A stretch of 64,000 nt of DNA, taken from assembly GCA_011364965.1 (NCBI GenBank), contig RDOB01000003.1:272939-336938 (forward strand). The letters run 5' to 3'. The translations under genes were made by a program, and so were the position numbers. This DNA comes from Candidatus Heimdallarchaeota archaeon (GTDB taxonomy: Archaea > Asgardarchaeota > Heimdallarchaeia > Hodarchaeales > Hodarchaeaceae). Below, piece after piece: positions 7,380-12,303 of the stretch (its first letter is position 1; each line of letters begins with the position of its first letter). The notes beneath the pieces were generated by a model. That model saw nothing but the letters and a program-made list of their open reading frames with translations. It was not told where the DNA came from and searched no databases.

Positions 7380-8186
7380 ATGACCTGCGAGGCTCTCTTA
7401 ATGAACACAACATTATATTCATTAGCCCAGAAAACATTAAAATTAGTAGAGGATACATTCAAAGACATAGAAATGGAGATTAGTGACTTAACATTAGGCC
7501 TTTTTTATTCAGGATTAAAGACCAAAGCAAATGTAATGGGGATCGGTTATACATTATTGGACGAACCTATTAGTAAAAAGAAATTAGTTATTTCATTGAA
7601 GAACGATTTACTTTCACAAAAGACTCTCAAAGAGTTAGCACATTTCTCGGAAGTAGATTTAGGTATTTTTAGAACTATAAAGCTTATTGCAATAAACGCG
7701 CTTTCACAATCGATTTTAGATCTTTCAAATGCAGGTCGTAAAGATATTCTTGAGTACTGTGATTTCCAGAAAGACGAAAAAGTTGGAATGGTGGGAAATA
7801 TCCATCCTATTTCTAAAACGTTAAGGGAAATAGTAGATGAAATTTACATCCTAGATAAATTTGACCCTCCTAAGTCAGAAACTCACGTTTATTCACTTGA
7901 AAAGCTTTCAGATTTGCCAAAAGTTGATCATTTATTCATTTCTGGTTCTGCTTTAGTTTTTGATGACTTCGATGAGATTTTAACACAATTAAAAGGGATC
8001 TCGGGTGAAAGAGTTTTAGTGGGACCTTCAGCTCAAATTCTTCCTGAGATTGCCTTTGAATTAGGATTTTCTCTTATTGGGAGTTCAAGAGTTATTTATC
8101 CAGATCATATAACGCACGTAATAAAACAGGGTGGAACTTATAAAAATTTCAAGAAATTTACACAAAAGTATACCTTTATGAATTAA
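7380..8186 (+). CDS. DUF364/Rossmann-like putative metal-chelation protein
   Basis: 'AINALSQ', 'KVGMVGNIHP', 'ISGSALV', 'VGPSA' typical of DUF364 proteins. Confidence 0.75.
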   Translation: MTCEALLMNTTLYSLAQKTLKLVEDTFKDIEMEISDLTLGLFYSGLKTKANVMGIGYTLLDEPISKKKLVISLKNDLLSQKTLKELAHFSEVDLGIFRTIKLIAINALSQSILDLSNAGRKDILEYCDFQKDEKVGMVGNIHPISKTLREIVDEIYILDKFDPPKSETHVYSLEKLSDLPKVDHLFISGSALVFDDFDEILTQLKGISGERVLVGPSAQILPEIAFELGFSLIGSSRVIYPDHITHVIKQGGTYKNFKKFTQKYTFMN

Positions 8187-8644
8187 TGAAGATTATAAAG
8201 CTGTTCTTGCAACTCCATAATTTGTTTCTGTAATTCTTTAATTATCTCATCATAGGGTTTCAATAAACATAAATCTATATTTTCTATTTCTTCGGCATTT
8301 TTCCAATCTAGGTCAGGTTTGACTAAATTTGAAAAACCCCGAGGAATTACAGCAAGTCCATCTCTTATTAATTCATAAATAATTTGTAATATTATCTTTT
8401 TTTCTTCTAAGGTCTGTATACCTAAAACTTTCATAATGTATCTTAAATTTGGGGTAGATGTCTCTTTGAATGAAAGTAGTAATAATGCACGATCTGCCAA
8501 CCTCTCCATTTCAAAATTACGATCTTCAGAACCTAATATTTTCTTATCCCTAGCATTCTCTTGAAAATTCTCTTTATATAGAGTTTTCGGTTCTTCAATT
8601 TCTTTAAATTTTTTATTTCCTCTAGGTAAAGGATCATTTAACAT
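8183..8644 (-). CDS. Hypothetical protein, paralog A of local three-member family (wHTH/coiled-coil-like)
   Basis: Shares RL.DRALLLLSFK, LIR.G...P.G and IDLCLL.PYD motifs with 9182..9661 and 10418..10795. Confidence 0.8.
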   Translation of the reverse strand: MLNDPLPRGNKKFKEIEEPKTLYKENFQENARDKKILGSEDRNFEMERLADRALLLLSFKETSTPNLRYIMKVLGIQTLEEKKIILQIIYELIRDGLAVIPRGFSNLVKPDLDWKNAEEIENIDLCLLKPYDEIIKELQKQIMELQEQLYNLH

Positions 8645-8903
8645 TCTGGTTAAACCTCTTTATGTTAATTCGGATATTATGTTAACCTTCAGGATCCATC
8701 TTTCACTTGAAGTAACTCAACATCTCAAAATCAATAAAGCTATTACTTATCTCTAAATGACAAAATTTCCCAAAAATTGTCAACTTCGAATATCCTTCTA
8801 ATATATGGGTGGGTGTTACTGATGTTTTTCTCAAGACGAAACCTATGATGCAATGTAAGATTGGTGCTTTAGGTTATTCGATGTTAAATTAAGATGACGT
8901 ATT

Positions 8904-9182
8904 ATGCCAATAAGAGAACAATTTTTGGGTTTAAGCGCACCATTAGATGGGCTCTATCAGCTCATTCATTTATCAGCAAATTTATTTTCCTCTTTCGAGG
9001 TACAAAAGGATCTATGCTTCATTAGTTTAAAAACCCCTAAAGAGGTCGAAGTATCAGAAACCGAGAAATTTCAATTACTTACTTATTTTCTTGATTTAAT
9101 ACAATATTTTTCCCAAGAAAGAGTAAATTTAATCCAAGACCCCATGAATAATCAACGATTGGCCCTATCAGGAGGTTTATAG
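8904..9182 (+). CDS. Small hypothetical protein
   Basis: 92-aa ORF abutting paralog B; no recognisable motif. Confidence 0.45.
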   Translation: MPIREQFLGLSAPLDGLYQLIHLSANLFSSFEVQKDLCFISLKTPKEVEVSETEKFQLLTYFLDLIQYFSQERVNLIQDPMNNQRLALSGGL

Positions 9183-9661
9183 TGATGTATATTGAATATG
9201 TTACAATAAAGGATGAATTAACATCCTCTGGGAAAAAAAATCTTGATGTACTAAATGGAAGATTGATCGATAATATTTCGAATGATGATAAAAGGATTAG
9301 TGACAGAAAAAATGAACAAATTACTCGTTTGACAGATCGTGCTCTTCTACTACTTTCATTTAAAGATATATCAACTCAAAATTTGAAACACCTCTGGAAT
9401 GTTCTTGATATCAAAACCATTGATCAAAAACAAAACATTTTGAGAGAAATTTACAAGTTAATAAGAGAAGGAACAGTTTATGTGCCTAGGGGATTTATAC
9501 AGCTTATAGATACAAATATTCAGATAAAAATTGGCAATCAGGATAATGTAGAGGATATAGACTTATGTCTATTACGTCCATACGATAAATTAATTCGGGA
9601 GATTCAAAAAGAAATAGCAGAATTACGAACAATAGAGGAAACTCAAGTTAACAGTTACTAA
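9182..9661 (+). CDS. Hypothetical protein, paralog B of local three-member family
   Basis: Same conserved motifs; AGGAGG RBS-like sequence just upstream. Confidence 0.8.
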   Translation: MMYIEYVTIKDELTSSGKKNLDVLNGRLIDNISNDDKRISDRKNEQITRLTDRALLLLSFKDISTQNLKHLWNVLDIKTIDQKQNILREIYKLIREGTVYVPRGFIQLIDTNIQIKIGNQDNVEDIDLCLLRPYDKLIREIQKEIAELRTIEETQVNSY

Positions 9662-9707
9662 AGTAATGTTCTAACATTTTTTACCAATTTATTAGGATTT
9701 ATTTAAC

Positions 9708-10151
9708 TTGTTAAGGAATTCAATTACCTCAAATGAAGTAAAAGGAAAATCTAATTTAGAAACAGAAGAGTTACGTATTCTAAAACTGATAATAACAGAT
9801 GAAAAAGAATTAACGGAACATCAGTTAATAGCAAAATGGAAAATTTTGAAACATATGCAATCAGAGCTAGAATTACCTTCGGATGTTTCGATATTTGAGT
9901 TATTAGCGCTGTTTAAAAAATTCGAGGAAATACGAAATACATTCGGTTTAGAAACAATCAACTTCAAACAACTCAATGAGATTCTAATAAATATTGTTAC
10001 TGTTAAAGATATGCTTGACTTTCCTTCGGAAACATCAATTTCAGAAATTGTTTCAAATCTGATATTTAGAGATATAGCAAACCTAGGACTGGGAGAGAAT
10101 TCATTACTTGAGAAATTGCTCCTCCTTTATCGGTGCAAAACGATTCAATGA
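9708..10151 (+). CDS. Hypothetical helical protein with internal repeat
   Basis: LELPSDVSIFELL / LDFPSETSISEIV internal repeats. Confidence 0.6.
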   Translation: MLRNSITSNEVKGKSNLETEELRILKLIITDEKELTEHQLIAKWKILKHMQSELELPSDVSIFELLALFKKFEEIRNTFGLETINFKQLNEILINIVTVKDMLDFPSETSISEIVSNLIFRDIANLGLGENSLLEKLLLLYRCKTIQ

Positions 10152-10417
10152 ACAAACAGCCGTTTTATACGAAAAATATGTGTGAAATCGGAATTTATAA
10201 TTGGAATATGTCGGATAATTCAACGGACTCACTGTGAATTAGCGAAAGAATAGTTTTTGTTTCCTATTCGGAAAGTTAAATAAAAGACTGATAGAGGTTA
10301 TTCAATCACCACTAGATACCTAATAAAATATTATTTATAAGCACTAGAATTGTAATTTAAGTAAAGGAAAATAAGTGTTCAAATAATATTCAAATAAATA
10401 CCACCTTTTCAAGCGAA

Positions 10418-10795
10418 GTGAAGGTAATTAAAGATCAAAAACTTGATGCCATCGGAAAAATCGAAGAAGAACAAATGGAAAGATTAGCAAATCGTGCACT
10501 TATTCTTCTATCTTTTAAAGATACAAATACACAAAATCTAAGGTTTGTATTGAATTTATTAGGAATAAGATCAATTAAAGATAAAAAAGCTATCTTGGAA
10601 GAAATTTTTCGGTTAATTAGAGAAGGTATAGTATATGTACCAAAAGGCCTCCCTCAATTATTAGATAAAGGGTCTAATTTCAATATTGACAACGCTAATG
10701 ATCCAGAAAACATAGATTTATGCTTACTCTGTCCATATGATAAATTAATTGAAGAAATCCAAAAAGAAATAGCTATTATTAAGAAGAAATCTTGA
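10418..10795 (+). CDS. Hypothetical protein, paralog C of local three-member family
   Basis: Same conserved motifs as A and B. Confidence 0.8.
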   Translation: MKVIKDQKLDAIGKIEEEQMERLANRALILLSFKDTNTQNLRFVLNLLGIRSIKDKKAILEEIFRLIREGIVYVPKGLPQLLDKGSNFNIDNANDPENIDLCLLCPYDKLIEEIQKEIAIIKKKS

Positions 10796-10944: not shown

Positions 10945-12303
10945 ATGGTTTTTCCTATATCAATTTACTCTAAAGATGATTGGCTTAATTTAGTGCCAAA
11001 ATTTTTGATAACTTTGGCAATCGATGCAACAGAAGTTGAGGATGAATCCTTTCAAAGGTATATTGCCTCTACTCTTGAAGAATACTTTGCTAAAGACTCT
11101 ATTAGGTTCATAGAAGCGATCAAAAGGATTTTAACTCAAGGATCAGATGAAGGCAGATATGTTATAATAAAAAGCCTCATCTTCGCACGGAGTATTTGGG
11201 GGGATTTGGCCATAGCAGAGACATTCCAAATACTGTTAACAGAATTAGCACTATCCCCAGATCGTATATATGCAAAGAATGCTGCATTTCTTTCAAGTAA
11301 ACTAGAAGATATAAGAATTTCTAAACATAAAGATTTTAAACCTACAGTTCCTCTGGAAGAAGTAAAAGAGGTTTTGGATGTAGAAGAAGAGTTCTTTGGA
11401 AGCTTTGAAGCATCTCAGGCGAGAGCTGTAGAAGAACCGATACCATCTCCTACACCGAGTTCACAAGCTCCACTACAACCTAAATCCGCACCAGGAGCTC
11501 CTCCAATGCCATCAAAGCCAGCGACAGCACCTATAAAAGAAACAAAAGTAGAAAGAGAATTTGAAAGCAAGAAGCGAAAAAAATCAATAGAAAAAATGGA
11601 AGATGTGAAAGAAATTTCTGAAGGAACTGTTCATACACATGTCCATTACTATTCACGAATGAATCCAAGAAAGACTTATCCTTTTACTGTCACGCTTTCA
11701 ACTCTTGCTAAAGTACTTGCTCAAGATAAGGTTCACTTCCTTTCAGGAGAAGAAGAAAAGGAAACGCGTGGGGAATTCAAAGTTACAGAAACAACAAAAC
11801 AATTGATTGTAGAACCTCTAATTTCAGGGTGCCTTGCCCAACCTACTTTTCAATGGATAGACCCTAGCCCTAAAAACCTTCCCAAAGAGCTCACATTCTT
11901 CATAACACCATTAGTTGAGGCAGGATTTCGTTCGACACCCCTGAGGGGGGAATTGCTGATTAAAGATGATTTTGGCAACATACTGCTAAAACTAAAACTT
12001 CATGATCTTTCGGTCGTTAGCAATAGAATAAGTCAGGTATTAGCTTTAGTTGGAACAGTGGGAGGAGGAACAATGCCAGCATTGGATTTTCTGTTTGGCA
12101 TAGATCTGCAACTTCTCTTAATTCAACAGCTCCGAGAACAACTCCCTAATTTGGTTTCCAACATTGACCTTACATTGCTCTTAAGGGGAGCTCAATTATC
12201 ACTCTTTGTTGGAGCGATAGGATTAGGTATCCTTTGGTGGTGGCGAAAAGGACGAGCTAAATTGGCTCCAGAGCGTTCTACTCAATGGAAGATTCCTAGT
12301 TAA
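10945..12303 (+). CDS. Hypothetical membrane-anchored protein: helical N-domain, Pro-rich linker, beta-rich domain, C-terminal TMs
   Basis: Linker PIPSPTPSSQAPLQPKSAPGAPPMPSKP; C-terminal hydrophobic helices followed by WWWRK. Confidence 0.65.
   Translation: MVFPISIYSKDDWLNLVPKFLITLAIDATEVEDESFQRYIASTLEEYFAKDSIRFIEAIKRILTQGSDEGRYVIIKSLIFARSIWGDLAIAETFQILLTELALSPDRIYAKNAAFLSSKLEDIRISKHKDFKPTVPLEEVKEVLDVEEEFFGSFEASQARAVEEPIPSPTPSSQAPLQPKSAPGAPPMPSKPATAPIKETKVEREFESKKRKKSIEKMEDVKEISEGTVHTHVHYYSRMNPRKTYPFTVTLSTLAKVLAQDKVHFLSGEEEKETRGEFKVTETTKQLIVEPLISGCLAQPTFQWIDPSPKNLPKELTFFITPLVEAGFRSTPLRGELLIKDDFGNILLKLKLHDLSVVSNRISQVLALVGTVGGGTMPALDFLFGIDLQLLLIQQLREQLPNLVSNIDLTLLLRGAQLSLFVGAIGLGILWWWRKGRAKLAPERSTQWKIPS

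Follow-up and report, generated by a model that had tools for sequence, protein, structure and literature searches.

Regulators of PadR subfamily 2 bind palindromic operators in their own promoters. Among archaeal winged-helix (wH) proteins, Sso10a has the topology α1-β1-α2-α3-β2-β3-α4 (PMC4941522), and OxsR from Haloferax volcanii activates transcription via a motif located upstream of the transcription factor B recognition element (BRE) and TATA box, and bears its functional Cys in an antiparallel interface helix (PMC9426492). Here we set a locus of a Hodarchaeales archaeon beside these systems. The 64,000-nucleotide stretch that was analyzed (Candidatus Heimdallarchaeota archaeon, assembly GCA_011364965.1, contig RDOB01000003.1, positions 272,939 to 336,938; hereafter the window) carries, at positions 8183-10795, three genes for paralogous proteins of a family that we call A, two genes for partner proteins X and Y, and a palindromic putative operator. 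We propose A as a putative dimeric DNA-binding autoregulator of this module, an assignment on which our confidence is evenly divided, and it is plausible that the A-containing module acts as a multi-subunit regulator.

Three A paralogs and a conserved operon

An earlier note on the window had described three paralogous small proteins of an unrecognized family, and on both counts it was right. The open reading frames (ORFs) of A1 (8183-8644, minus strand), A2 (9182-9661, plus strand) and A3 (10418-10795, plus strand) specify 153, 159 and 125 amino acids (aa), respectively, and the three products are true paralogs. They align at 43-45% identity overall and at 51% over a core of ~105 aa, with a BLASTP E of 3e-35 for the most distant pair. 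The family hidden Markov model (HMM) recovers A1 with E 2.8e-72 and A2 with E 1e-75, and the motifs quoted in the note (RLxDRALxLLSFK, LIReG..vP.G and IDLCLL.PYD..I.EiQK.I) are present in the window copies. A2 represents the "long" form of the protein, which has a further N-terminal extension of ~35-45 aa, whereas A3 represents the "short" form.

No Pfam match was obtained by hmmscan at E≤1 for any of A1, A2 and A3, no match to A was found in NCBIfam, PADLOC or PHROGs, no relative of A was found among IMG/VR viral contigs, and a search of PDB sequences with A, X and Y profiles gave nothing under E 0.02. Searched exhaustively with the A HMM, 1.84 billion cluster representatives yielded 28 matches and no bridge to a large family. 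At least 243 relatives of A were recovered by a word-indexed search of 5.8 billion proteins, in which all named relatives are annotated as "hypothetical protein" and come from Heimdall- or Hodarchaeales-type metagenome-assembled genomes, bearing out an Asgard origin. A is encoded in 21 of 21 relatives belonging to the window's own family/genus group (GTDB species genomes) and in none of 19 genomes from sister families of the same order and class. A phylum-wide sample gave the same picture, with A in 20 of 20 genomes of the window's group versus 0 of 280 others, and A is therefore a lineage-specific family. The compared genomes are close kin, and counts made across them are not independent observations.

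Homologs in other genomes are clustered rather than scattered as singletons. The genome that contains the window (G000; 2.97 Mb, 87% complete) has a fourth close A copy on the same contig, 130 kb from the window (C11:415590-415949). This copy forms a cassette with a 94-aa gene and a 156-aa gene on its two sides, whose products are 46% identical to the X (92 aa) and 44% identical to the Y (147 aa) of the window. A distant fifth paralog of 135 aa (E ~1e-11) lies on another contig (C9:419901-420194; L005 1405-1812, minus strand). This distant form is present as a single copy in nearly every related genome, shows no linkage to X or Y, and is convergent with a 175-aa ORF that has a roadblock/longin-like sequence pattern and no Pfam match. 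In a maximum-likelihood tree of the family, the short copies that follow Y, including A3, form one clade (support 96/92), and the long copies that follow X form the backbone. A1 sits on a long private branch, which marks it as an extra, fast-diverging duplicate specific to G000; it has no counterpart at the same position in other genomes.

The paralogs had also been placed in a divergent five-gene cluster together with two orphan ORFs. The two interleaved ORFs exist, at 8904-9182 and 9708-10151 on the plus strand, but they are not orphans, as they encode the conserved operon partners X and Y. X, an acidic protein (median isoelectric point (pI) 4.8) encoded by the first gene of the operon, is kept in 22 of 22 family genomes, always directly upstream of an A gene and on the same strand, and Y is kept in 21 of 22. 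The X stop codon TAG (9180-9182) overlaps the GTG at 9182 with which the A2 ORF opens, and a Shine-Dalgarno-like AGGAGGT within the final X codons (9170-9176, plus strand) precedes the likely A2 start, the ATG at 9185, by 8 nt. X and A2 thus appear to be translationally coupled. The arrangement of the window, X-A-Y-A′, is the commonest architecture; X-A-Y, X-A-A′, X-A, X-A-W and X-A-110aa-REC also occur (W and REC are introduced below), and each genome has one to three operon copies. Only X, A and the palindromic site are universal across the compared genomes.

The proteins that vary among these architectures include recognizable regulatory domains. Y has no Pfam match and, on reading by eye, seems helical in character. 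It is homologous to the N-terminal domain of 219-287-aa proteins of related genomes that carry a TrmB-type winged helix-turn-helix (wHTH) C-terminal to a Y domain; four of six such fusions score above the PF01978 gathering cut-off, and hhalign matches the fusions to operon Y with 99.8% probability (E 2e-28). The free form of this wHTH, W, is strongly basic (pI 9.3-11, charge +6), is encoded in 20 of 21 related genomes and in G000 (C12:300416-300724), and stands in place of Y in the X-A-W operons of two genomes. In G001 and G016, a CheY-like receiver (REC, PF00072) is encoded last in the X-A operon. Neither a Y-wHTH fusion nor a W linked to the operator was found in G000, where the W gene lies outside the window in a cluster of three small wHTH genes (L092; C12:298626-300724). 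The other two members encode a W-like protein (298626-298934, minus strand) and a 160-aa protein (299754-300236, plus strand) that has a wHTH-like segment at its C-terminus; W itself is on the plus strand. In operons of the G001/G016 type, a 110-aa protein is encoded between A and REC (L112 1936-2268, minus strand, on G001:C13). It has faint Pfam similarity to DUF6432 and to ABC-3C middle component 6 (E ~0.01) and an HTH-like sequence pattern, and may be a functional replacement for Y.

Several possible identities for X and Y were considered and rejected. The invariant C-terminal Gly-Gly of X is reminiscent of ubiquitin-like proteins, but the AlphaFold2 model does not show a β-grasp fold. In all homologs the Gly-Gly codons coincide with the AGGAGGT of the next gene, which explains their invariance. 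A truncated MarR-type winged helix, considered for the segment LIQDPxDxSRYALxGG of X, disagrees with the α-β-β-α-β-β order of the model (pLDDT, the predicted local distance difference test score, 79), for which only weak structural matches were found. Indeed, structure searches with X found no convincing relative (VIA Z ≤5.1; Foldseek E ≥0.02, with uL23, PulM/EpsM and an S6 permutant), and the ESM Atlas gave no usable match for X or Y. Neither X nor Y is a remote homolog of A according to hhalign (probability <1%).

A palindrome shared by the module genes

A 25-bp palindrome, TGACAAAATTT-CCC-AAAAATTGTCA, occupies positions 8758-8782 in the intergenic region between the divergent A1 gene and the X-A-Y-A operon. 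The site was defined as TGACA-N15-TGTCA with at most one mismatch per half-site. So defined, it occurs in all 28 distinct regions upstream of X versus 8.4% of control windows, and its spacing is always N15, while the sequence of the spacer has diverged across loci. Most copies are located 113-116 nt 5′ of the X start, a distance that is 146 nt in the window.

Beyond the palindrome, the 28 upstream regions share a conserved TTCGAATATC box and then a TATA-like block, the latter appearing as tTATATc ~16-20 nt past the right half-site in most loci. The corresponding elements of the window, delineated from the consensus and information content of these regions, are the box at 8785-8794 and the TATA-like element TAATATAT at 8799-8806 (both plus strand), the putative promoter of the X-A-Y-A operon. 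The box extends to TTCGAATATC(TT) between operator and TATA-like element in the 28 loci, and TTCGAA often forms the center of the palindrome spacer. The box may be a BRE, or include one, or it may be a second binding site. The location of the palindrome just upstream of the TATA-like box suggests, by analogy with the arrangement described for OxsR, that regulation occurs by activation.

Scanning of the 2.97-Mb G000 genome with a position weight matrix (PWM) ranks the two X-A promoters at the top (scores 22.8-24.6), followed by one site at 18.6 and others at 16.3 or less. Both top sites were in the training set, so the weight of the scan lies in the lack of other strong sites; no further site scoring 19 or more was found in G000 that would indicate a wider regulon. 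In five relatives, genome-wide counts of the exact pattern are not above those of a reversed-pattern control, and the plausible sites lie beside module genes. The same palindrome is found in relatives upstream of free Y, Y-wHTH fusion and X-like genes, upstream of one W subgroup (subgroup 1; scores 20-25), and 33 nt ahead of the first ATG of the free REC genes of G010 and G014, where the match to the pattern is exact. Four of the seven exact matches in the G010 genome are within ~170 nt upstream of module genes. The recurrence of the same site upstream of module genes identifies the palindrome, as judged from sequence comparison, as a genuine cis-regulatory site, and its regulon, as far as seen, is the module itself.

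Other regions near A and W genes were devoid of the site. No operator was detected upstream of A3 (10152-10417; best PWM score -5), none scoring above 13 was found upstream of the fifth paralog (L005) or the solo A genes of L012 and L013, and no TGACA-N15-TGTCA site is present in the long AT-rich intergenic region of the L092 cluster. The Y-A3 gap itself (10152-10417) is 266 bp in the window versus ~35-45 bp in most other genomes, and in it lie an inverted repeat of 10 nt and short direct repeats (TTCAAATAA, twice). Possibly A3 has gained a separate promoter.

Two further sequence elements were noted during these comparisons. In three genomes (G010:C1:1556712, G011:C9:7218 and G017:C65:15789), the operator pattern is matched exactly at nearly identical sites whose spacer contains GC, TGACAGTAC(C/A)TGTTAATTAATGTCA; these are either a further conserved target or a piece of conserved coding sequence. 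A leader motif, ACACATGGACGTTG (AGATGACGTAT in the window, ~8885-8897), is conserved across loci L006-L028 at ~10-25 nt 5′ of the X start. This motif may be an unusual ribosome-binding or regulatory element or, in some genomes, part of a short N-terminal extension of X.

Fold of A and candidates for the operator-binding protein

An AlphaFold2 model of A3 was built from a 64-sequence alignment and is of moderate confidence (pLDDT 77, predicted template-modeling score (pTM) 0.68). Its elements (helix 5-31, strand 38-40, helix 41-47, helix 53-68, strand 72-76, a long low-confidence loop, strand 100-103 and helix 107-124) follow the order α1-β1-α2-α3-β2-wing-β3-α4, which is the order of a winged helix with an extra C-terminal helix. 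The C-terminal helix is short (18-24 residues) and no further domain follows it in the model. The suggestion of the earlier note that A combines a winged helix with a C-terminal amphipathic helix is thereby borne out, both by the model and by fold searches. All top 50 matches in an exhaustive VIA search are winged-helix proteins, as are the Foldseek matches. The VIA scores form a plateau (Z 7.0-8.2) that includes PadR, MarR/SarA, ArsR/SmtB, Sso10a-2, STIV F93, cullin WHB and Cdc6 WH, and the full-length matches of lowest root-mean-square deviation (rmsd) are PadR subfamily 2 proteins. Foldseek matches are weak, the best being MarR (E 0.028, query TM-score (TMq) 0.47, rmsd 6-9 Å), with cullin WHB at TMq 0.54.

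The model and the fold searches therefore support winged helix as the fold class of A, with no specific family supported. No HMM match to A was found for MarR (PF01047/PF12802) or, at E≤1, for PadR (PF03551). The two families proposed for A from the sequence of the window, TrmB/TrmBL2 and E2F/DP, fared no better. hmmscan gave no PF01978 match, and a remote homology to the TrmB-type wHTH proteins of the same lineage was rejected on an hhalign probability of 1.5-2.3%, the aligned part comprising only the RLI.(K/E)G.V end of α3/β2. E2F/DP membership is not supported, no PF02319 or other Pfam match having been obtained at E≤1; E2F/DP chains are absent from the listed VIA and Foldseek matches of A3, which does not settle the matter by itself.

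Several observations favor A as the protein that binds the palindrome. A dyad-symmetric operator is located in its own promoter, as is seen for all 28 X-A promoters, and the helix-wH-helix layout of A is that of dimeric operator-binding regulators. A shares only with X the universality of the site, and G000 lacks both a Y-wHTH fusion and a W gene preceded by the operator. In the metagenomic protein P0132, an A domain (residues 5-113; A profile E 1e-21) is fused to a REC domain (132-243; PF00072, 51.2 bits), such that A occupies the place of the output domain of a response regulator. A domain paired with REC is usually an output domain, most often one that binds DNA. Moreover, the two X-A operons of G001 have operators that differ symmetrically (TGACA/TGTCA versus TGCCA/TGGCA), and the A proteins paired with them differ at four exposed positions of α3 while α1-α2 is identical.

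In an A dimer, two wH domains would be linked through the long N-terminal and the amphipathic C-terminal helices, in the manner of PadR subfamily 2 proteins or Sso10a, and these domains would contact both TGACA half-sites. The centers of the half-sites are 20 bp, or about two helical turns, apart, and from this spacing we infer a dimer with well-separated DNA-binding domains, as would be provided by antiparallel pairing of the Sso10a type. The A1 gene and the X-A2-Y-A3 operon, which diverge from each other, would both be served by the single site at 8758-8782 of the window. X is probably present in a stoichiometric complex with A-long and would modulate it. Y, the CheY-like receiver and W would be interchangeable accessory or input modules, with genes placed third in the operon or, elsewhere, downstream of a copy of the operator.

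Other observations weigh against binding of the operator by A. The covariation of α3 and operator is a single case (G001), and the A-REC fusion P0132 is a singleton from a single 5.3-kb metagenome contig. A has no match to any HTH Pfam model, its VIA matches level off in a plateau at Z 7-8 that the tool itself flags as possibly generic, and its putative recognition helix, α3, is Glu-rich. The protein is near neutral (median pI 5.7; charge +1 to +2 in the HTH segment and -2 to +2 in the wH core) compared to the co-encoded W (+6, pI 9.3-11). Finally, W and Y-W fusions are canonical DNA binders, and in several genomes their own genes lie behind the operator in the manner of autoregulators.

The last points are those on which a different assignment can be built, in which the basic TrmB-type W, on its own or as a Y fusion, binds the palindrome, and A serves as a winged-helix adaptor or co-regulator that does not bind DNA. 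A, X and Y would then modulate W by protein-protein contacts, for example through Y-Y heterodimerization or titration. We regard this as possible though somewhat doubtful. PF01978 recognizes W and the Y-W fusions above its gathering cut-off, W is strongly basic while A is neutral to acidic with an E-rich α3, W is encoded in 20 of 21 related genomes and in G000 as well as inside X-A-W operons, and the operator precedes the genes of one W subgroup and of Y-W fusions. However, roughly half of the genomes, among them G000 and G001 (94% complete), yielded neither the W subgroup linked to the operator nor a Y-W fusion, yet the operator is conserved there. The W gene of G000 has no operator, only one W homolog was found in G001 to account for two operons with different symmetric half-sites, and W homologs are present also in sister families that lack the X-A module.

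The topology and copy number of A bear on another proposal, in which A would be a protein of the Sso10a/Lrs14 type with an architectural role in the nucleoid or chromatin, one that binds DNA with low specificity, bridging or bending it, and whose paralogs would form combinatorial dimers. A has the same topology as Sso10a (PMC4941522), with VIA Z 7.2 and rmsd 3.7 over 83 residues to Sso10a-2, and G000 has several A paralogs. Proteins of the Sso10a type are basic, however, whereas A is near neutral and closely tied to X and to a single specific palindrome that only a few module genes possess; A is also confined to one lineage at family level. The chromatin role raised in the earlier note is disfavored by this near-neutral charge and by the confinement of the conserved DNA site to the module's own genes, and we consider it very unlikely.

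The Cys of the DLCLL motif, described initially as invariant, had invited the view that A might be a thiol-based redox sensor like OxsR of the TrmB family. This residue is the same in all three window copies, and single-wH thiol switches have an archaeal precedent (PMC9426492). Its invariance does not extend beyond the window, as the fourth G000 copy has Arg at this position and 47 distinct family members have C in 32 (68%), R in 6, V in 5, Y in 3 and H in 1. The Cys also maps to strand β3 in the AlphaFold2 model, whereas the functional Cys of OxsR lies in the antiparallel interface helix. With such limited conservation a redox switch is unsupported, and we hold it to be highly improbable.

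The division of A into long and short forms allows a more elaborate version of operator binding by A, in which A-long and A-short would be obligate heterodimers and X a third subunit of a combinatorial, signal-integrating switch with interchangeable inputs, unique to this Hodarchaeales lineage. We think this version unlikely. If true, it would constitute an independently arisen prokaryotic analog of the eukaryotic heterodimeric winged-helix factors (E2F/DP). Published phylogenies place the archaeal group of this lineage near eukaryotes. The findings have no direct bearing on eukaryogenesis, since A is found in only one family-level clade (20 of 20 genomes versus 0 of 280).

Surroundings of the module and comparison with known systems

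In the window the module adjoins a DUF364 (PF04016) gene (7380-8186, plus strand), and A1 is inserted between this gene and the operator. The same DUF364 C-terminus is seen by eye ahead of the X promoter in five other loci (L034-L037 and L044), which indicates that the chromosomal location of the module is conserved. Directly 3′ of the operon is a gene for a 452-aa protein with no family match (10945-12303, plus strand). Its N-terminal part is helical, a linker rich in Pro, Ala and Ser comes next, and the C-terminal part has a hydrophobic segment preceding WWWRKGR.

The stability of this setting is relevant to whether X-A is a toxin-antitoxin-like cassette or a defense or mobile-element cassette. 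Its small acidic first gene, overlapping and coupled second gene, palindromic operator and presence in one to three copies per genome are traits of that kind. However, PADLOC, PHROGs and IMG/VR gave no match, and fold searches with X and A turned up nothing resembling a nuclease or a toxin. All 22 genomes of the lineage contain the module, and in several of them the neighboring DUF364 gene is conserved as well. We judge a role of this sort to be most improbable.

A search of one literature library found no paper describing the A family or the operator. The A family, its partner families and the operator defined here are new, but A falls within a well-known class, that of the winged-helix transcription regulators. 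Few regulator-operator pairs have been defined in Asgard archaea, where transcription regulation is little understood, and the locus offers a compact and experimentally tractable system of this type, with a sharp 25-bp site of invariant spacing and a small closed regulon that includes a receiver domain and TrmB-type regulators. The analysis gives context to at least four families annotated as "hypothetical protein" (A, X, Y and the Y-wHTH fusions), and reveals modular shuffling of regulatory parts by fusion, fission and operon swapping within one lineage.

The closest architectural counterparts of A are PadR subfamily 2 regulators such as Rv3488 (5zhc) and a Listeria PadR-like protein (7wjp), which likewise consist of a wH and one C-terminal helix, used by the PadR proteins for dimerization, in ~100-110 aa. 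VIA superimposes A on 5zhc with Z 7.9 and rmsd 3.7 over 91 residues and on 7wjp with Z 7.6 and rmsd 3.0 over 83 residues, an architectural resemblance only. Unlike these proteins, A has no PF03551 match and has a much longer variable wing loop, a long N-terminal helix and, in A-long, an N-terminal extension. The A locus differs also in having half-sites 20 bp apart, an obligatory partner gene, X, and a second paralog in the operon.

Sso10a/Sul10a of the Sulfolobales (1R7J, 4HW0) shares with A its archaeal origin and an identical topology, and its antiparallel coiled-coil dimer sets the wH domains far apart, as would suit half-sites separated by two turns. Sso10a is a basic, abundant, architectural protein, whereas A is near neutral and tied to one operator. 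The C-terminal helix of A is short (~18-24 residues), and A has no sequence similarity to Sso10a.

With the response regulators of the OmpR/PhoB type, A has in common one metagenomic A-REC fusion and the presence of REC genes in X-A operons or behind the operator. In that fusion, unlike in OmpR/PhoB, A is N-terminal and REC is C-terminal; the two domains are mostly separate proteins, and the A sequence is unrelated to Trans_reg_C. The single-wHTH proteins of the TrmB family (PF01978), of which OxsR is an example, resemble A as small archaeal winged-helix regulators flanked by helices for dimerization, putative in A. A differs from that family in lacking a PF01978 match and in having a Cys that is neither conserved nor located in an interface helix, and true TrmB-type proteins, W and Y-W, are part of the same gene network as A.

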